Source of the DNA: Candidatus Bipolaricaulota bacterium
GTDB taxonomy: Bacteria; Patescibacteriota; Patescibacteriia; UBA11705; DATKZF01
DNA: 64,000 bases
Direction: 5' to 3'
Assembly (NCBI GenBank): GCA_035528115.1
Contig: DATKZF010000001.1
Location: 28,508-92,507, forward strand
The position numbers and the translations under genes were made by a program. The notes beneath the pieces are model-generated. The model was given only the letters and a program-made list of their open reading frames with translations. It made no database searches and was not told the origin of the DNA. The stretch's first letter is position 1. Every line of letters starts with the position of its first letter. This document shows, piece after piece, positions 2,979-52,262 of the stretch.

Positions 2979-3911
2979 ATGAATTTCGTCGATCAAATTT
3001 ATAAAAAAATAGTCAATATTGAAATTCAGGGCGCGACGAGTGTCTGCGAGGCCGTGCTTTTGGCGCTGAAAAAAGAGTCGGCTGACAAAAAAATGAAAAC
3101 TTCCGCCGATTTGATAAGAAGTTTGCATCGGGTCGGCCATTATTTGAGCCGCGCCAGAGCGACCGAACCAATGGCCGAAAACGCGGTCAGGTTTGTCGAG
3201 CATCATTTGAGGCAAAATAGGGAAATGGAATTGAAAGAATTGAGAGTTTTAATAAAGCGCGGCATTGACGGATTTTTGTTTCGCTTGGCGACCAATAAAA
3301 AAAATATTCGCGATGTCGGCGAGCGGTTGATTGAAGACGAAGACAATGTCTTCACCCATTGCCATTCGTCAACGGTGATCGATGTTTTGGCCGAGGCGAA
3401 AAAGAACAAGAAGAAAATTCATGTTTTCAATACGGAAACCAGGCCTCTTTTTCAAGGCAGAATCACCTCAAAGGAATTGATTAAGAAAAAAATTGAAAAC
3501 ACGCAGGTCGTTGATTCGGCCGGACCGTTTTTCGTCAGTCAATACACAAAAGATTATGACATGGATGTTTTGTTGCTGGGTTGCGATGCTATTTCCCAAA
3601 GCGGTGACGCCGTGAATAAGATCGGTTCGCTCGGCTTGGCTTTGGCGGCCAAAGAAGCTGATATTCCCGTTTACATCGCCACGCAATCTTTAAAATTGGA
3701 TCTTGACGCCAAATATTTGAAAAATTTGGAAATTGAAAAGCGTCCAAGCAAGGAGATTTGGCCCGGCGCGCCGGAAGGCGTTGAAATAATCAATTACGCT
3801 TTTGATATTATTCCGGCCAAATACATTACCGGTTTCATTACCGAACTCGGCGTCCTAAAGCCGAAGCGTTTGGCCAAAAGCGTCAAAGCGGCTTACCCGT
3901 TTTTAATATGA
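2979..3911 (+). CDS. e2b2: Ribose-1,5-bisphosphate isomerase (eIF-2B alpha/beta/delta-like)
   Basis: eIF-2B-like family features; sits in an operon with form III RuBisCO and AMP phosphorylase, as in archaeal and CPR AMP salvage. Confidence 0.65.
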   Translation: MNFVDQIYKKIVNIEIQGATSVCEAVLLALKKESADKKMKTSADLIRSLHRVGHYLSRARATEPMAENAVRFVEHHLRQNREMELKELRVLIKRGIDGFLFRLATNKKNIRDVGERLIEDEDNVFTHCHSSTVIDVLAEAKKNKKKIHVFNTETRPLFQGRITSKELIKKKIENTQVVDSAGPFFVSQYTKDYDMDVLLLGCDAISQSGDAVNKIGSLGLALAAKEADIPVYIATQSLKLDLDAKYLKNLEIEKRPSKEIWPGAPEGVEIINYAFDIIPAKYITGFITELGVLKPKRLAKSVKAAYPFLI

Positions 3912-4354
3912 TTAAGTTGATCATTTGGGATTTGCTTGGCGTGCTCTATGAAAACGGGGAAGTCAATCCGTTTGCTCGGGCAATCTTAGCTGAATTTGAA
4001 AAAAAGAGTATTGAAAACGTTTGCGTCAGCAATCTTTCACCGGACACGGTTCATCGACTCGCTGAGCAATTAAATATCAAACATGTTATAATATGCCAAG
4101 AAGAAGGTTTTTCTAAGAAAGAAACGCCGGTTTACGAAAAGGTCTTGTCCGATTTTAAAGTAAAAGCAAATGAGGTTTTATTTATTGACGATAATGAGAG
4201 CAATTTGGCGGCCGCGCGAAAAATAGGTATAAAAACGGCCGTTTTTAGAGGAAAAAAGGGCAATGCGGATTTTGCGATTGATGATTTGGTAGATGTTTGG
4301 GGGATACTTGCACATATCATGGATCATGCCTGCCCGCCGACCTGTCCGCCGTAG
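3908..4354 (+). CDS. HAD-superfamily phosphatase (short); candidate nucleotidase or phosphoglycolate phosphatase
   Basis: DxD-type motif I (IIWDLLGVL) and motif IV (FIDDNESN); start overlaps e2b2 stop by 4 nt. Confidence 0.55.
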   Translation: MIKLIIWDLLGVLYENGEVNPFARAILAEFEKKSIENVCVSNLSPDTVHRLAEQLNIKHVIICQEEGFSKKETPVYEKVLSDFKVKANEVLFIDDNESNLAAARKIGIKTAVFRGKKGNADFAIDDLVDVWGILAHIMDHACPPTCPP

Positions 4355-4400
4355 CTTCACCGGAGGCGGAAGCTTAAGAGCGAAGGCGGGGATCACGTAT

Positions 4401-8576: not shown

Positions 8577-8610
8577 ATTAAAAAAGGTCAGCCGTGATGA
8601 TAGCTGAACC

Positions 8611-8814
8611 TTAGGCGAATTCGCGAGTTTTGCCCGTGCCTTCGCACTTGGGGCAGGGGGCGTCCGTTTCGACCGTGCGCTCGCCGCGGCAGTTCGTGCA
8701 GACGAAAAGCACGGACGTCTTGTTGTTGCCATTGCCGCCGCAGGTCGGGCAGGGTTCGATTTTTTTCCCGGTTCCCAAGCAATCCGTGCAAGTGACTTCG
8801 CAGATCCTCGTCAT
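8611..8814 (-). CDS. Standalone DnaJ-type cysteine-rich zinc-finger protein (4x CxxCxGxG), 67 aa, GC-rich
   Basis: CTDCLGTG, CPTCGGNG, CTNCRGER and CPKCEGTG repeats match the DnaJ central CR domain. Confidence 0.6.
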   Translation of the reverse strand: MTRICEVTCTDCLGTGKKIEPCPTCGGNGNNKTSVLFVCTNCRGERTVETDAPCPKCEGTGKTREFA

Positions 8815-8946
8815 GGCATTGTTCCTTTCCGCGGGTTGTTGTTTTGCCTCGAAAAGTTAATTTAGCACGATATTTGGAATTTGTAAAGAGTTGGCTTTTG
8901 GGAAATTTTAGATAAAAAAACGCTTAAAAATAAGCGAAAAAGGCTG

Positions 8947-10123: not shown

Positions 10124-10372
10124 ATGTACAACCTTTATATTCTTCAATGTTCGGATAAAACTTTATACACGGGCATTGCCATTGATTTGGAAAAGAGAGT
10201 AATAGAGCACAACGAAAGCAAGCTCGGCGCCAAATACACTCGCGGCCGGAGGCCGGTTAATCTTGTATATTCAAAAAAATTCCGCGACCGCTCCGCCGCC
10301 TCCAAAGAAGAAGCGCGGGTGAAGAGATTGTCGAGGAAAGAGAAGTTGGCTATGGTTAAAACAATTTGTTAA
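10124..10372 (+). CDS. GIY-YIG nuclease-family small protein (UPF0213/YhbQ-like)
   Basis: MYNLYILQCSDKTLYTG...IEHN matches the GIY-YIG core. Confidence 0.7.
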   Translation: MYNLYILQCSDKTLYTGIAIDLEKRVIEHNESKLGAKYTRGRRPVNLVYSKKFRDRSAASKEEARVKRLSRKEKLAMVKTIC

Positions 10373-16221: not shown

Positions 16222-16249
16222 AATCAGTTGCTGGATTTTAGCTTTTGTT

Positions 16250-16360
16250 GGAATGACAGGCCACAATGAGTCTGCATGGAATGGAAAGCCCGGATGAGTC
16301 TGAGAAAACTAATTATTATGCCGACCCTTTATCGTCATTCCCGCGAAAGCGGGAATCCAC
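16250..16360. repeat. MITE-like repeat, family 3 (~110 bp), copy 1: starts GGAATGACAGG, ends GTCATTCCCGCGAAAGCGGGAATCC hairpin
   Basis: Near-identical direct copy at 16725-16835; inverted partial copy at 16681-16738. Confidence 0.7.
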
Positions 16361-16388
16361 AAGAGTATCGTCGGCATCAGTATTGTTT

Positions 16389-16676
16389 ATGCGCTCCTAT
16401 TATGTTTACATGTTGGCCAATAAAAGAAATGGAACCCTTTACACAGGAGTTACCAATGATCTTGCCAGAAGACTCGATGAGCATAAGAACGATGTTAATG
16501 AATCATTTACGAAAAGGTATCAAGTCCACACATTGGTTTATTTTGAAGAACATGAGTGCATTGATGAAGCTATTTGGAGGGAGAAATGCATTAAAAAGTG
16601 GAGAAGAAAATGGAAGTTAGCATTAATTGAAAAAGAAAATCCTGATTGGAGGGACTTATCGAATGAATTAATTTAG
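16389..16676 (+). CDS. GIY-YIG nuclease-family small protein (second paralogue); ORF track start at 16266 lies inside the repeat
   Basis: YYVYMLANKRNGTLYTGVTNDLARRLDEH GIY-YIG core; first 31 codons of the track ORF are repeat-derived (duplicated at 16742). Confidence 0.65.
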   Translation: MRSYYVYMLANKRNGTLYTGVTNDLARRLDEHKNDVNESFTKRYQVHTLVYFEEHECIDEAIWREKCIKKWRRKWKLALIEKENPDWRDLSNELI

Positions 16677-16680
16677 GCCT

Positions 16681-16738
16681 GGATTCCCGCTTTCGCGGGA
16701 ATGACAGGTCAGGTTAGTCTGTGCGGGAATGACAGGCC
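16681..16738. repeat. Inverted partial copy of the family 3 repeat end (GGATTCCCGCTTTCGCGGGAATGACAGG)
   Basis: Reverse complement of the repeat terminus. Confidence 0.6.
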
Positions 16739-16835
16739 TAAATGAGCCTGCATGGAATGGAAAGCCCGGACGAGTCTGAGAAAACTAATTATTATGCCGA
16801 CCCTTTATCGTCATTCCCGCGAAAGCGGGAATCCA
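16725..16835. repeat. MITE-like repeat, family 3, copy 2 (direct repeat of 16250-16360)
   Basis: ~95% identical over ~110 bp; accounts for spurious ORF 16742..17047. Confidence 0.7.
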
Positions 16836-16871
16836 GAAAACACAGTTTGAAATTAAACCAAACAAATACTT

Positions 16872-17819
16872 ATGAAACATTTAATCTCACTCAAAGAAAA
16901 TTCGAAAGAAGACATTTTGAAAATGATCGATCTGGCTCAAAAACTGAAACAAAAAAAGAACAACGGCGAATTGACGCGCTATCTGGAAGACAAGACTTTG
17001 ATCATGCTTTTTCAGAAAACTTCCACCCGCACCCGTTTGTCCTTTGAATCTGCCATGACCGAGCTGGGCGGTCACGCGATTTTTCTTGACTCGCGCACCA
17101 CGCAGTTTTCTTTGTGCGATTTTCGAGATGAGATTCAGGCGGTGATGCGATTTGGCGCGACCTTGATGTTTCGCGCGCAAAAGGCGGCTGACGTTATGAC
17201 CGCGGCTTCTTTCAATAAAATTCCGGTCATTGACGCTTGCAGCGAGAAATATCATCCGGCTCAGGCGATCACTGACATGCTCACGATGATTGAAAAGAGC
17301 GGGGGACTTGAAAACATAAAAAAAGTGGTTTGGCTGGGAGTTGAAAATAACGTCATGAATACTTTGATGCTGGTTTGCGTGAAATTAGGCGTCAAATTCA
17401 CCATTATAGCGCCGGAAGCTGATATTGACAGCGTTGATGAGGAGTTAAAGCGCCAAGCCGCGGAAACGAGCCTGGTCGAGCGGACGCTGGATTTGGCCGA
17501 GGGGTTAAAAGACGCGGATTTTGTCCACACCGACACTTGGATGAATATGGAGTTTTTTGACAACGGCCAAGTCAAACCGCAAATGCAAGCGGAATATGAA
17601 AGAAGAAAAGCCACGTTTTCTCCTTATCAAATCAACGCCGATTTAATAAATAAATACTGTCCTCAAGCCAAAATAATGCACTGCATGCCTTGCCACATCG
17701 GTTATGAAATTTCTCGCGACGCCATGGATCATCCAAACAGCGTTGTCTTTGATCAAGCGGAAAATAGGCTTCACGCTCAAAAAGGCATTTTAATGTGGCT
17801 TTTGGACAGGGAAGTTTAA
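16872..17819 (+). CDS. argF: Ornithine carbamoyltransferase-family enzyme (divergent substrate-binding motif)
   Basis: STRTR carbamoyl-phosphate motif; HCMPC (HCLP-like) motif; 315 aa; TDTWMNME replaces the canonical DxxxSMG. Confidence 0.6.
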   Translation: MKHLISLKENSKEDILKMIDLAQKLKQKKNNGELTRYLEDKTLIMLFQKTSTRTRLSFESAMTELGGHAIFLDSRTTQFSLCDFRDEIQAVMRFGATLMFRAQKAADVMTAASFNKIPVIDACSEKYHPAQAITDMLTMIEKSGGLENIKKVVWLGVENNVMNTLMLVCVKLGVKFTIIAPEADIDSVDEELKRQAAETSLVERTLDLAEGLKDADFVHTDTWMNMEFFDNGQVKPQMQAEYERRKATFSPYQINADLINKYCPQAKIMHCMPCHIGYEISRDAMDHPNSVVFDQAENRLHAQKGILMWLLDREV

Positions 17820-18385: not shown

Positions 18386-18556
18386 CGTCGTTCGCGAACG
18401 ACGTGGCCCACCAATTTTCTCTCCGTGGAGCGAAAATTGCCCTGAGTGAGGAGCGCGGCGACGAATCGAAGGGCATTTTATATTATTTATGTAATCTCCA
18501 TAAAGCTGCCATTACCGGCGGTTTTTATAATTTTAAAATGACGGCTTGTGAAGCTG

Positions 18557-28045: not shown

Positions 28046-28083
28046 AAAAAAGTCACCGAAATTTAATTCGGTGACTTTTTTTG
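28046..28083. terminator. Palindromic intrinsic terminator (GTCACCGAAATTTAATTCGGTGAC with flanking A/T runs)
   Basis: Read directly. Confidence 0.5.
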
Positions 28084-28194
28084 GCTCCGCGCCCGCCTGC
28101 CGATAGGCAGGGGCCGGACTTCCTCCTTCACCCCCTCGACTATGCTCGGGGCTTCGGAGGATAAACTTCTCGTCCGTCCGGATTAAAACAACGA

Positions 28195-28226
28195 AAAAAC
28201 ACCGAATTTCGTTTCGGTGTTTTTTC
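28195..28226. terminator. Intrinsic terminator downstream of tRNA-Asn on the minus strand (AACACCGAAATTTCGTTTCGGTGTT)
   Basis: Read directly. Confidence 0.5.
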
Positions 28227-28227
28227 G

Positions 28228-28304
28228 TGGCTCCGCGGGCCGGACTCGAACCGGCGACCCACTGATTAACAGTCAGTTGCTCTAACCAACTGAGCTACCG
28301 CGGA
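28228..28304 (-). tRNA. tRNA-Asn (anticodon GTT)
   Basis: Reverse complement folds: acceptor TCCGCGG, anticodon stem ACTGA/TCAGT, loop CTGTTAA, T-loop TTCGAGT, discriminator G + CCA. Confidence 0.8.
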
Positions 28305-28636
28305 ATGATGTTAAATAGAATTTGTTTCCGATGTAACCCGCTCCATGACCGAGCCCCGCCCTGAGCGAGCCGAGCTTGCGAGGGGAGTCTAAGGGTACCG
28401 CGGAATGATTTTAAATAGAATTTGTTTCCGATAAAACCCTATCCATGACTGAGCCCGGCGGAATAAATTCAATTTTGTCCGATTATCCGACTTGAAGCTT
28501 GGCGGATAATTGTGACAAAAATATAATATCAAGGAAAAAGCGATTTGTCAATATATATGCCCGTTTAAATTTGGTCGGATTGTAAAAAAAATCGCGATAT
28601 TATATAATATTCGCAGAATAACCATAATCAAATTTT

Positions 28637-29590: not shown

Positions 29591-29804
29591 TAAATAAAAA
29601 TGTTTTGAAAACCGCTGTTTGAATTTTTTTTCAAGGCGGTTTTTTTTATGGCGCGGTCGGCGGCGTATTCGCCGCCGATGTAGAGACGCGCCGCGGCGCG
29701 TCTCTACACGCGGTCGGGATCGCCCGCGGTCGCGCCATTGTGAATAACATTTTTAAAAAAATGTCATTCATTGCTATAATGAATTCATTGAATTAATAAA
29801 AAAT

Positions 29805-49274: not shown

Positions 49275-49970
49275 AATAAATTCGCCAAAAAAATTTTAAA
49301 TCAAATTCGAAACGTGGTTTTCGGCGTTGAAGACGGCCTGATTTCCACGCTCGGAGTATTAACGGGCATTGCCGGAGGCACGAACAACAAGGCAATCGTG
49401 ATTTTAACCGGCTTCGTGGTCGTTTTTGTGGAAGCGTCATCAATGGCCGTGGGCACGTTTCTTTCATCCAAATCCGAAAGACAAGCCAAGGTTAAAAAAT
49501 TAAAGGAAGAATTGGAAAAAATCAGGGAAAATCCTGAAAAAGAAAAGCTGGAATTGGTTGAATTTTATAAAAGAAGAGGTTACAGCGAAAAAGAAATCAG
49601 CATGATGGTGAAACGAGTCAGCGGCAGTGAAAAATTGATTTTGGAAGAAATGGCCAATAAGGAACTGGGCATTTCCATGAAAAGAGAATATAAAACAAAG
49701 CGAGGAGCGTTTTATATGTTCTTTTCATATATGATCGGTGGTTCAATCCCCGTGTTGCCTTATTTTTTCTTTTCGGTAAATATTGGCATTGTTTTTTCAA
49801 TAATATTAACCTCAATCGGACTTTTCTTTTTGGGATATTACAAGGGCTGGTTGACTGGAGTGCCTAAGGTTAAAAGCGGTTTGGAAATGTTTGTCATGGC
49901 GGCCGTGGTGTCAGGATTGGGATTTGCCGTAGGCAAAATAATCGGCCACTTCATTGGCTTGGTTTCATAA
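49272..49970 (+). CDS. VIT1/CCC1-family (DUF125) Fe/Mn transporter
   Basis: GVEDGLISTLGVLTGIAG motif; C-terminal TM bundle. Confidence 0.7.
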   Translation: MNKFAKKILNQIRNVVFGVEDGLISTLGVLTGIAGGTNNKAIVILTGFVVVFVEASSMAVGTFLSSKSERQAKVKKLKEELEKIRENPEKEKLELVEFYKRRGYSEKEISMMVKRVSGSEKLILEEMANKELGISMKREYKTKRGAFYMFFSYMIGGSIPVLPYFFFSVNIGIVFSIILTSIGLFFLGYYKGWLTGVPKVKSGLEMFVMAAVVSGLGFAVGKIIGHFIGLVS

Positions 49971-50418
49971 TATGACTTTGGTTAATTACAAAAAGAAAAG
50001 AAAATTTGAAAAAACATCGGAACCCAAAGCCGTGGTGGCAAGTTCGAAAAAAGGAAATATTTATTCCATTCAAGAGCATCATGCCAGAAATTTGCATTGG
50101 GATTTGAGGTTGGAAGAAAAAGGCGTTTTAAAATCCTTCGCCATTCCCAAGACTCCGCCGAGAAAAACGGGACTGAAGCGTTTGGCGGTTCAGACCGAAG
50201 ACCATCCGGTGGCTTACGCGTTTTGGCAGGGAGAAATTCCCAAAGGAGAATACGGAGGCGGTAAAGTTAAAATTTGGGATAGGGGGGAATATAAGACGAT
50301 TGAAAAAGATAAGAAAAAATGGTTGATTGAAATTTCCGGTAAAAAATTAAAAGGCAAATACGCCCTGATTCATTTTAGAGAAAAAAATTGGTTGTTTTTC
50401 AAAATGAAAAAAGATTAA
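49954..50418 (+). CDS. Standalone DNA ligase D 3'-phosphoesterase (PE) domain protein
   Basis: HHARNLHWDLRLE...GVLKSFAIPKTP matches the LigD PE signature. Confidence 0.7.
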   Translation: MAWFHNMTLVNYKKKRKFEKTSEPKAVVASSKKGNIYSIQEHHARNLHWDLRLEEKGVLKSFAIPKTPPRKTGLKRLAVQTEDHPVAYAFWQGEIPKGEYGGGKVKIWDRGEYKTIEKDKKKWLIEISGKKLKGKYALIHFREKNWLFFKMKKD

Positions 50419-50458
50419 AATTACAAATTATAAAAGCCTCGTCGAGTTTCGGCGGGGC

Positions 50459-50683
50459 TTATTGGTTTTCGGGGGTGCCTTGTAGGTACCCCATGAGATA
50501 TTCCGGCGTGCTACCGGAGTTGGCGCGACGTTCGAACGCGTCTTTTTTGCCGTGATTCCATTCACGGAAATTCCCCGTGATGTGCGGGCACTCGGACTCG
50601 TGAAACCCTTGATTTCTCAGACAATACGCGCACTTCATCGGGAGCAAGATTACCGCGAGATCGATGTCATTTGGACGCATCAC
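50459..50683 (-). CDS. Hypothetical small Cys/His-rich protein, GC-rich
   Basis: ORF; local GC well above background. Confidence 0.3.
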   Translation of the reverse strand: MMRPNDIDLAVILLPMKCAYCLRNQGFHESECPHITGNFREWNHGKKDAFERRANSGSTPEYLMGYLQGTPENQ

Positions 50684-50806
50684 AAGCTCTTCCTTTCACG
50701 CCTTGGCGTTGTAAACATTGTTATTATGCATAGATTAATATTTTTTGTCAAGTTTGCGTTTTATTCGAAAATTGTATAAATTATAGTGTGCATAGGAGGT
50801 GAAGCG

Positions 50807-51142
50807 ATGAGTGTAAACTCTGAAATTGTAAGACTGCACGGAAAATTGGTTGGCCGGAGAAGACGCGATGCAAAAAGATGGGAGCTTTCTTTGTCGGACA
50901 CGACATCAAGAGATGACCTGATTGCGCTACTAGAGTATTTGCGTGAAGAAACTCCGCGGTTTTGCCGAATACCCGGGGTGAACTTCTTGAAAGACAGAGA
51001 TCCTCGCTCGCTCATTTTGAAGCTGTTGGCGATCAAAAACGACAAGAGAAGATCGCGAAAAAAATACGAGCGCAGAACGGCAGTCATGATTTCCAGAATC
51101 GATAATTGCATCGAAATACTGATCCAAATCTCGCGAAGCTGA
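50807..51142 (+). CDS. Hypothetical protein, GC-rich
   Basis: GGAGGTGAAGCGATG Shine-Dalgarno-like site. Confidence 0.35.
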   Translation: MSVNSEIVRLHGKLVGRRRRDAKRWELSLSDTTSRDDLIALLEYLREETPRFCRIPGVNFLKDRDPRSLILKLLAIKNDKRRSRKKYERRTAVMISRIDNCIEILIQISRS

Positions 51143-51279
51143 TTCATAATCGGCTTTTTAAAATTTTAAAAGACAGATCGTGAATCTGTCTTAGAACGTC
51201 GATTGACTGATATCAACAGTTTTTTTGACAGAAAATGCGAATATTTATACGCTTTAATCAGGAAGGTAGGAGGTCACAC

Positions 51280-51540
51280 ATGTGTTATGTCAAGCTCAAG
51301 GGAGGGAAACAGGTTCACAGACTGTTTTTTTTGGCCGTGTTGAATCAGGTGCGAACGCTGGCCATATTTTATCCTGAAGCTTTTGTCGCTTTGCGGCAAT
51401 GCTGCATCGAGCCCGGACAAGAGCTGCCGTCTGATATTCTGGAAACGCTAAACAGCGAGCTTTATCTCGTTGACGTAGGAGGCAATGTTTGCCCTGAATT
51501 AAGAGACATAGTAATCTCTCTAATGATCAAAGACGGATAA
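51280..51540 (+). CDS. Hypothetical protein, GC-rich
   Basis: GGTAGGAGGTCACACATG Shine-Dalgarno-like site. Confidence 0.35.
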   Translation: MCYVKLKGGKQVHRLFFLAVLNQVRTLAIFYPEAFVALRQCCIEPGQELPSDILETLNSELYLVDVGGNVCPELRDIVISLMIKDG

Positions 51541-51818
51541 ACTTATCCGTTTTTTCAATCTTGACTTCGGGTCGGTTTTGATGTATATTGTATTTTGTAA
51601 TCGTTATGCATTGGCCGGCATAGCTTCCGCCTTCGCTCCTCGCTTTGCTCAGAGCTTCGGCGGACAGGTCCGCCTACGTTGAAACTTCGGCGGACAGGCA
51701 GTGGTTTTGCCCGCTCGACTCAGTGGAGCTTCGCGAGCGGGTCCGCTCAGCAGCGAATCTGCGTGAGCGGATAAACCATTGGTTGTATTGCCCTTTGTAA
51801 TTAATCACTATTTATCGT

Positions 51819-51893
51819 GCCAGCGTAGCTCAGTGGCAGAGCAGTGGTTTTGTAAACCATTGGTCGTGGGTTCGACTCCCTCCGCTGGCTCCA
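51819..51893 (+). tRNA. tRNA-Thr (anticodon TGT), with one T-stem mismatch
   Basis: Acceptor GCCAGCG/CGCTGGC, D-arm GCTC/GAGC, anticodon loop TTTGTAA, T-loop TTCGACT, CCA. Confidence 0.65.
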
Positions 51894-52106
51894 CTCTAAA
51901 TTTTGAAAAAGAGTATAACGTGGGTTCCCACCTGCGCTCCTCGCTCCGCTCGTAGGAGTTACGCCTGCCTTCGTCCCTCGACAAGCTCAGGGCTTCCGCC
52001 TACGCCAATGCTTCGGCGGACAGGTCGGCTGGCAGGCCATTTCGCCCTTGATTTGTTTTGAAATAAGGTGTATAATTAAAAACGTTGAATATTTAATATA
52101 GAAAAT

Positions 52107-52262
52107 ATGTCACAAGACAACATGATTAAATTGGAGTGCAAGGAATGCAAGCAAATCAATTATTACTCTCATAAAAACAAGAAAATTTTGAAAGAAAGAC
52201 TTGAGATGAAAAAACATTGCAAGCATTGCAAAAAGCACACCATGCACAAAGAAATCAAGTAA
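52107..52262 (+). CDS. rpmG: 50S ribosomal protein L33 (51 aa; not in the ORF track)
   Basis: [51 protein letters not shown]; CxxC...CxxC zinc ribbon and L33 signature KNK...LE.KK.C..C.KHT.H.E.K. Confidence 0.8.

Follow-up and report, generated by a model that had tools for sequence, protein, structure and literature searches.

A probable nested tRNA scar with GC-rich hairpin modules at tRNA-Thr in a Candidate Phyla Radiation bacterium

Ghost tRNA pieces around tRNA-Thr

The DNA described here is a 64-kb stretch of a Candidate Phyla Radiation (CPR) genome (contig DATKZF010000001.1, positions 28,508 to 92,507; hereafter the window), assigned to the CPR/Patescibacteria by its gene content and relatives and with a GC content of 43% as a whole, and the region in question is that surrounding its intact tRNA-Thr(UGU) gene, upstream of rpmG. 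Partial tRNA-Thr copies, referred to as ghosts, and GC-rich hairpin modules flank the intact gene on both sides. The 51.6-52.04 kb region is probably a nested tRNA scar, i.e., an older tRNA-Thr copy that was split by a fresh tRNA unit and then invaded by hairpin modules, and we place the probability of this reading at roughly 60%. The features of the locus are given below in order; R1 is a covariance model of the GC-rich module, and L079 and L085 are loci of related genomes.

51561-51589, plus strand: sigma-70-type promoter P1, TTGACT-17-TATATT, orthologous to TTGACA-17-TATAAT followed by ATTTTGT in L085 and L079
51586-51613, plus: leader a, overlapping the -10 box of P1
51614-51625, plus: probable ghost of tRNA-Thr positions 1-12, GCCGGCATAGCT, 10/12 identical, its leader duplicated at matching spacing
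51626-51697, plus: two tandem GC-rich hairpin modules, M1 and M2 (TCCGCC…GGCGGA-CAGG twice), in place of the ghost D arm; R1 50.3 bits at 51622-51672
51698-51709, plus: ghost positions 24-35, GCAGTGGTTTTG, 12/12 identical, ending after the second anticodon base
51710-51771, plus: 62-nt insert in the ghost anticodon loop, with two perfect 8-bp hairpins, CCCGCTCG/CGAGCGGG and TCCGCTCA/TGAGCGGA
51772-51783, plus: ghost positions 36-47, TAAACCATTGGT, 12/12 identical
51784-51818, plus: leader b, a diverged second copy (81%) of the sequence just downstream of the P1 -10 box
51819-51893, plus: intact tRNA-Thr(UGU), called by ARAGORN; Rfam tRNA, 68.8 bits
51894-51918, plus: tail b, 25 nt, resembling the rpmG promoter region (TTTTGAAA…GTATAA), 76%
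51919-51927, plus: ghost positions 48-56, CGTGGGTTC
51928-52040, plus: module block, made of a CGCTCCTCGCT-containing piece, an M1-like piece, module M3 and a second right arm (GGCTGGCAGG); R1 47.2 bits at 51991-52028
52048-52076, plus: rpmG promoter, TTGATT-17-TATAAT
52107-52262, downstream of tRNA-Thr: rpmG (L33), by family match

The ghost pieces occur in gene order and on the strand of the tRNA, and they are contiguous across the inner unit, the downstream 9-mer beginning precisely where the upstream ghost stops (47/48). All lie within 210 nt of tRNA-Thr. An earlier reading of the locus, made from the sequence alone, described an anticodon arm split by about 65 nt; exact copies of 12 nt and 12 nt are indeed present, 62 nt apart, and the two perfect hairpins lie between them. 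Upstream of the gene, tRNA-derived matches in words of at least 9 nt amount to 24 nt, which none of 2000 dinucleotide shuffles equalled, and the search for ghost pieces found no antisense tRNA-Thr matches around the gene. The leader and tail of the inner unit duplicate promoter-proximal sequences of the outer unit. The outer copy is without a D arm (positions 13-23) and has lost most of positions 57-76, so that no cloverleaf would form after removal of the inserts. In locus L142, an exact copy of tRNA positions 1-12 is followed by a module of the type seen after ghost 1-12 in the window.

The recurrence of GC-rich blocks on both sides of the tRNA, also noted in the sequence-only reading, was confirmed. 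CTTCGGCGGACAGG is present in three exact copies around tRNA-Thr, compared to 0.32 matches (within 2 mismatches) expected in the whole window, and CGCTCCTCGCT occurs once on each side of the gene. Longer repeat families connect 51629-51698 with 51930-52024 at 64-83% identity, and the high GC content (62-66%) belongs to this non-coding repeat DNA. The locus thus bears the marks of DNA that moved or recombined at a tRNA gene. At the TG^TAAA site of the anticodon loop, two-hairpin inserts of differing sequence are present in the window and in the ghosts of both L118 and L120.

The upstream ghost is interrupted twice (51626-51697 and 51710-51771), each time with a net gain of 62 nt and by a different sequence; the equal length may be coincidence. 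Some candidate features were rejected. TCGGCTGGC at 52025-52033 was dropped as a ghost acceptor strand, as the motif also follows a module copy at 4326-4392, far from any tRNA-Thr. Since tRNA-Tyr precedes tRNA-Thr(UGU) in many relatives, the upstream GC-rich DNA was compared to 26 tRNA-Tyr sequences as a possible decayed tRNA-Tyr; this was dropped because only short GC-rich words were in common. Scanning viral contigs by 16-mers yielded 76 single matches, a result judged consistent with chance.

Hairpin modules and nests at other tRNA genes

The GC-rich module has the consensus YCCGCC-TNCGC…GAGCTTC-GGCGGR-CARG in a 12-copy alignment drawn from the window and distant CPR loci. Its outer stem pairs in 100% of alignment cells, with UA/CG and GC/UA switches, and compensatory changes are found in 5/10 base pairs (0/500 shuffles do as well); most of the aligned sequences had been selected by a pattern in which the stem core is mandatory, and the switches are not forced by this pattern. 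The inner helix covaries too. R1 finds five strong copies in the window, two of them outside the tRNA-Thr locus. It recovers the three training copies from the window and also an untrained copy in a nest at tRNA-Asn (28117-28169, 28.6 bits), which is a TCCTCC/GGAGGA stem variant present in L142 as well. In 358 kb of relatives, R1 detected 16 copies, 13 of which are within 100 nt of a tRNA gene, in both orientations relative to the tRNAs. By a simpler pattern count, 53% of modules fall within 300 nt of a tRNA, compared to 15.5% of bases.

Multiple dispersed copies with conserved ends, together with a hairpin kept by compensatory change, are properties of repetitive extragenic palindromes (REPs) and miniature inverted-repeat transposable elements (MITEs). 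Because modules occur in both orientations relative to the tRNAs, they are better regarded as DNA-level elements than as a strand-specific RNA. The modules behave as small REP- or MITE-like DNA elements, dispersed here and across CPR and clustering at tRNA genes. One of the dispersed copies lies within a coding region:

4326-4392, minus strand: module copy in the last codons of a HAD-family open reading frame (ORF), flanked by GATCA(T/C)G; R1 44.5 bits

This copy provides the HAD-family hydrolase gene (ORF 3908-4354) with its last 10 codons and stop; in its absence, the frame would reach a stop about 24 nt past the insert. As the module supplies the 3' end of the gene, a palindromic repeat has been recruited into a coding region.

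A second nest is present at tRNA-Asn:

28083-28456, minus strand: nest at tRNA-Asn, matched by 2/2000 shuffles

Read on the strand of the intact gene (28228-28304, minus), the nest begins with a duplicated 61-nt leader and tRNA positions 1-9 (E 6e-16). A 39-nt GC-rich insert follows, then the intact tRNA with its own terminator, and finally a ghost T arm and acceptor, broken by the 28117-28169 module and a 20-nt hairpin, with a second terminator. tRNA-Asn shows the same nested architecture as tRNA-Thr. No endonuclease gene lies inside either nest; the GIY-YIG genes of the window are at 10124-10372 and 16395-16676.

The comparison set for these nests was 80 rpmG loci from metagenomes (L087-L166), in which the order tRNA-Thr(GGU) – tRNA-Tyr – tRNA-Thr(UGU) – rpmG – tRNA-Trp is widespread. 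At this site, neighbouring tRNA-Tyr and tRNA-Trp genes are missing from the window and from the two relatives closest to it. Partial tRNA copies beside intact tRNAs are common among the relatives and are nearly all on the same strand, with 5' pieces upstream and 3' pieces downstream; the few exceptions are mostly cross-matches to neighbouring tRNAs. Inverted repeats of at least 10 bp enclose 7/110 tRNAs, compared to 0.7% for mismatched flanks used as the null. GIY-YIG genes, confirmed with Pfam, lie inside nests of L103 (4725-4976) and L120 (1936-2181 and 2316-2555), and a remnant is found in L136.

Layers that carry different alleles, with exact breakpoints, are seen in L120 and L149. At tRNA-Thr(UGU) of L120, the ghost is broken at 35/36: between its parts 1-35 and 36-76 lies an insert in which a 17-bp inverted repeat encloses an intact tRNA of another allele. 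The tRNA-Thr(GGU) gene of the same locus is split at 39/40 by an insert with the same arms (TCCCGA…GGATCCTCGA…TCGGGA), the left one of which is also found in L085, a relative of the window. In two further nests the arms are the window's own module (TCCGCC… / …GGCTTCGGCGGACAGG), with different tRNAs between them, tRNA-Trp in L120 and tRNA-Thr(GGU) in L149; for L149, R1 scores the pair of arms at 31.7 bits and treats the entire tRNA as an apical insertion. Three layers are nested in L149. The outer ghosts, 1-19 and 20-76 (breakpoint 19/20), are parted by an insert with 13-bp perfect inverted-repeat arms. Within this insert, a middle tRNA shows a compensatory acceptor stem of its own, GCCCATG/CATGGGC, and is broken at 30/31 by the inner tRNA with its module arms. 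This middle allele is hard to derive via in-situ duplication. The clearest nests with inverted-repeat arms are L149 2359-2736, L120 1380-2960 and 3200-3420, L165 2580-2760, L159 800-1030, L126 2740-2950 and L103 4640-5140.

Elsewhere in the window, the GIY-YIG gene at 16395-16676 (Pfam E 2e-17) has a 125-nt direct repeat (92% identity) on both flanks (16238-16838) and also lies between perfect 26-27-nt inverted copies of GTCATTCCCGCGAAAGCGGGAATCCAG; the 16238-16838 interval has the look of a small mobile cassette in its own right, with a 315-aa ORF (16872-17819) downstream. The second stand-alone GIY-YIG gene, 10124-10372 (82 aa; Pfam E 5e-15), is about 1.1 kb from tRNA-Ser, and a 71-aa GC-rich (up to 75%) ORF with repeated C-x2-C motifs and no Pfam match (8603-8815, minus strand) adjoins tRNA-Ser. 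Directly 3' of tRNA-Val (18386-18476), an 18-nt perfect palindrome (CGTCGTTCGCGAACGACG) is followed by a second copy of the last 8 nt of the tRNA (GCCCACCA) and then by two more palindromic GC-rich stretches; this 8-nt duplication is not significant alone and was set aside as evidence. The GC peak of the window (77%), at 29634-29752, consists of intergenic nested palindromes (e.g., GTAGAGACGCGCCGCGGCGCGTCTCTAC) after a terminator-like hairpin, which do not match the module model.

Explanations for the tRNA-Thr locus

The nested-scar reading would account for the tRNA-Thr locus as follows. An older tRNA-Thr(UGU), transcribed from the 51561-51589 promoter, would have been split between positions 47 and 48 by a new copy of the tRNA unit, made up of a short leader, the intact tRNA and a short tail. 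GC-rich modules would then have invaded the dead outer copy, two of them replacing the D arm, with the two-hairpin insert entering between the second and third anticodon bases and the module block after the T-arm stub. The intact tRNA-Thr has no promoter of its own and would therefore be transcribed from P1 through about 230 nt of scar, a structured leader from which the present tRNA may be released by RNase P. The scar pattern recurs at tRNA genes across related CPR bacteria; as a pattern it is well supported, and it seems to be previously undescribed; the full-text literature searched held no description of nested tRNA cassettes in CPR, an absence that applies to that literature only.

As to how such nests arise, we make a more tentative proposal, at somewhat below even odds. 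CPR bacteria may hold undescribed small cassettes, bounded by inverted repeats and carrying a complete tRNA gene, sometimes together with a GIY-YIG gene, which insert into the cognate resident tRNA gene and kill and replace it in one step. Insertion might proceed via double-strand-break repair (with template switching), homing or short-homology-assisted uptake. Because the target tRNA gene is essential, only insertions that bring a working tRNA would survive, and serial events could build up layers, producing ghost tRNAs nested in the manner of Russian dolls. The modules could be arms or empty forms of one vehicle, also able to spread independently; the loci at tRNA-Thr and tRNA-Asn would then be decayed examples of the process.

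Several observations weigh against these views. The inner tRNA-Thr of the window has neither inverted-repeat arms nor a nuclease gene, no enzyme was identified, and the density of GIY-YIG genes in the relatives' loci is no higher than in the window overall. A target-site duplication was seen for one module copy only (GATCA(T/C)G at 4326-4392). The downstream 9-mer (48-56) taken alone is marginal, being matched by 91/2000 shuffles (p about 0.045), and ghost 1-12, with its 2 mismatches, is not significant by itself. The comparison sequences are all metagenome assemblies and include no strain-level pair differing in presence and absence of an insert. Ghost 24-47 is 100% identical to the live tRNA, and this could be explained just as well by gene conversion or by a recent partial duplication in situ.

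The last point leads to the strongest alternative, in which slippage or unequal exchange produced an in-situ partial tandem duplication from the P1 -10 region to tRNA position 47, and the upstream copy decayed and passively gathered REP-like hairpins, with no mobile tRNA cassette involved here. Leader and ghost copies are consistently spaced, as such a duplication would leave them. For tRNA-Thr of the window, where the inner unit has no arms and the live gene matches ghost 24-47 throughout, a recent duplication of this kind, with modules invading afterwards, stays a serious rival. We nevertheless consider it unlikely, as it leaves unexplained the start of the downstream piece exactly at position 48, the copying of the rpmG promoter region in tail b, the tRNA-Asn nest with its own leader and terminator, and the relatives' nests with alleles that differ between layers.

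The sequence-only reading proposed either repeated integration and excision at a tRNA att site, with three small ORFs as leftover cargo, or a GC-rich structured RNA family, and suggested a synteny comparison, homology searches and an Rfam scan. The features between the neighbouring LigD gene and tRNA-Thr are as follows:

49954-50418, upstream of ORF1-3: LigD_N, a stand-alone LigD 3'-phosphoesterase gene (PF13298, E 1e-35)
50434-50460: bidirectional terminator, just beyond the ORF1 stop with a 2-nt overlap, and also 3' of LigD_N
50459-50683, minus strand: ORF1, 74 aa, C-x2-C…C-x-H, GC 52.9% (ORF call)
50751-50723, minus: ORF1 promoter-like site, TTGACA-17-CATAAT
50807-51142, plus: ORF2, 111 aa, GC 45.5%, GGAGG site upstream (ORF call)
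51280-51540, plus: ORF3, 86 aa, GC 45.5%, GGAGG site upstream (ORF call)
51529-51554: terminator-like hairpin after ORF3, from an inverted-repeat search

The three ORFs are confirmed, as are their placement between LigD_N upstream and tRNA-Thr and L33 (rpmG) downstream and the strong Shine-Dalgarno-like sites of ORF2 and ORF3. Their description as a GC-rich islet applies to ORF1 alone: the long ORFs of the window (n=34) have a GC content of 44.3 +/- 3.8%, and ORF2 and ORF3 are average. The promoter-like sites of ORF1 and ORF2 are divergent, and a terminator and promoter, orthologous as a pair in the window, L079 and L085, separate ORF3 from tRNA-Thr. VIT1, LigD_N and L33 are the gene neighbours of the interval.

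None of the three ORFs matched Pfam, PHROG or NCBIfam, and no integrase, recombinase or other mobility domain was found. ORF1 and ORF2 gave zero matches in a search of 5.8 billion proteins (for ORF1, a word-index search). A full HMMER search with ORF3 returned an identical 86-aa entry (P0121) and a single plausible relative, P0123 (88 aa, 31% identity, E 6e-5, weak, full-length); ORF3 as a domain of large repeat proteins was dropped, as the large matches are repetitive or low-complexity proteins. Exact-product look-ups of window proteins gave no match.

Relatives of the locus were found via LigD_N homologues, the nearest being from Patescibacteria metagenome-assembled genomes and from groundwater or sediment metagenomes; one genome (P0001) has a LigD_N that is 99% identical. 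A search of GTDB genomes via the 694-aa membrane protein found only 28%-identical Magasanikbacteria loci, without the tRNA. The order C39 peptidase – VIT1 – LigD_N – […] – tRNA-Thr(UGU) – rpmG – 696-aa protein is kept in L079 and L085. The flanks are thus conserved and the interval between LigD_N and tRNA-Thr is variable, at 5.1 kb in L079, 1.9 kb in L085 and 1.7 kb in the window. Weak positional homologues of ORF1 (L079:7017-7286, minus, pairwise E 2e-9) and ORF2 (L079:7405-7779, plus, pairwise E 2e-7) hold the same position and divergent arrangement in L079 and are not present in L085. L079 and L085 have three other small ORFs in common within the interval, and among these three loci ORF3 is unique to the window. 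Because of these homologues and shared ORFs, ORF1-3 resemble leftovers of a larger variable region more than cargo. To judge from these sequences, the interval looks to vary by differential loss or replacement from a larger gene set, not by import of foreign cargo, and ORF1-3 are probably separate, ordinary fast-evolving small genes within it.

Integration and excision by a tyrosine-integrase element, leaving att-like repeats and ORF cargo, is improbable. The direct GC-rich repeats on both sides of the tRNA and the variable length of the interval would fit it, and an archaeal precedent exists in which a tRNA-Thr 5' fragment lies beside a recombinase-bearing element (PMC3293823). At the locus itself, however, neither an integrase nor a recombinase domain is found in ORF1-3, the GC content of ORF2 and ORF3 is average, and ORF1 and ORF2 are conserved in position in L079. 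The tRNA fragments are internal and upstream, in gene order, with no distal 3'-end repeat beyond the ORFs, and the ORFs themselves lie outside the repeats and ghost pieces, upstream of the tRNA promoter.

Equally improbable is a functional structured RNA, in which ghost pieces and hairpins would be under selection as leader and trailer of the pre-tRNA, serving its processing, stability or regulation, or would make up an intron-like or split tRNA whose outer halves are joined. The leader of about 230 nt from P1 to the tRNA is predicted to fold into a row of hairpins, with an anticodon-derived stem closing a junction (-85 kcal/mol, z -2.8), and the module stems carry compensatory changes. GC-rich complementary arms beside tRNA halves also recall the split tRNAs of Nanoarchaeum, in which such arms adjoin the halves. 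The trailer, in contrast, folds no better than its shuffles do (z -0.2), the orthologous leaders in L079 and L085 are unlike that of the window and lack modules, and the ghost is missing the D arm as well as most of the T arm and acceptor. The Rfam scan of 51400-52150 (E up to 10) returned the tRNA only, with no group I intron ribozyme match, and the 62-nt insert is also too short for such an intron. Of the GC-rich structured RNA family proposed earlier, the hairpin family with its compensatory changes stands; it matches no Rfam family, and its two orientations relative to the tRNAs and the copy inside a protein gene point to DNA rather than RNA.

Chance similarity or an assembly artefact is the least credible account: short GC-rich words recur easily and the window is probably from a metagenome assembly, but the shuffle tests exceed chance, the copies are diverged (76-92% identity) in a manner unlike an assembler product, the architecture is repeated in many independent assemblies, and the L079, L080 and L081 loci, from three sources, agree in tRNA positions and have near-identical gene calls.

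Known systems and consequences

Individual parts of the nested scar resemble known systems. Like REPs and bacterial interspersed mosaic elements, Rickettsia palindromic elements (RPE) and other MITE-like repeats, the modules are short GC-rich imperfect palindromes with conserved ends and a variable centre, dispersed and mostly intergenic, which can enter a coding region, as the 4326-4392 copy does. They differ in being strongly tied to tRNA genes, in that two arms can enclose a whole tRNA in relatives, and in having a target-site duplication at a single copy; no REP-associated tyrosine transposase or other transposase was linked to the module among the few window ORFs scanned. Tyrosine-integrase islands and prophages at tRNA genes likewise leave partial tRNA copies by an intact tRNA, beside a variable gene interval. 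Here there is no integrase, the inserts are only 100-800 bp, and the pieces are nested, 5' upstream and 3' downstream, instead of forming a single 3'-end repeat.

Disrupted tRNA genes (split, multi-intron and permuted) are described in archaea, and for Caldiarchaeum tRNA-Thr a model places a 5' fragment upstream of a newer copy with a mobile element between (PMC3293823). The likeness lies in tRNA halves parted by inserted DNA, with GC-rich complementary sequences adjoining them. In the present case the host is a bacterium, the outer halves have decayed and are made redundant by an inner copy that is intact, and no bulge-helix-bulge motif or splicing endonuclease has been shown. Within CPR, rRNA genes are insertion hot spots in which some inserts encode GIY-YIG proteins without being introns and many are short and ORF-less; that study makes no mention of tRNAs (PMC11270868). 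The clade is the same and structural RNA genes are again the targets; those inserts interrupt a working rRNA gene, whereas here the interrupted tRNA is dead and replaced by the copy borne on the insert. Free-standing homing endonucleases also lie beside tRNA genes, as with SegB of phage T4, a GIY-YIG enzyme that drives preferential inheritance of its neighbourhood (PMC13096335). A GIY-YIG gene similarly adjoins tRNA genes in the relatives' nests. SegB belongs to a phage system that replaces alleles rather than nesting them; the CPR GIY-YIG proteins are nucleases by prediction, and none is encoded at tRNA-Thr of the window.

Spread by disrupting an essential tRNA gene while delivering its substitute has, to our knowledge, not been described for bacterial tRNA genes. 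If the cassette proposal is correct, a selfish element that disrupts its target and yet delivers a substitute could not easily be lost, because tRNA genes are essential and usually single-copy in the reduced genomes of CPR bacteria. It would explain the exchange of tRNA alleles between CPR lineages as well as the GC-rich clutter at CPR tRNA loci, a source of spurious peptides when genes are called. Together with the signature of ghost pieces in gene order, the covariance model offers a direct means to survey the phenomenon, which would also provide a bacterial counterpart to the long-standing problem of how tRNA genes came to be split in archaea.

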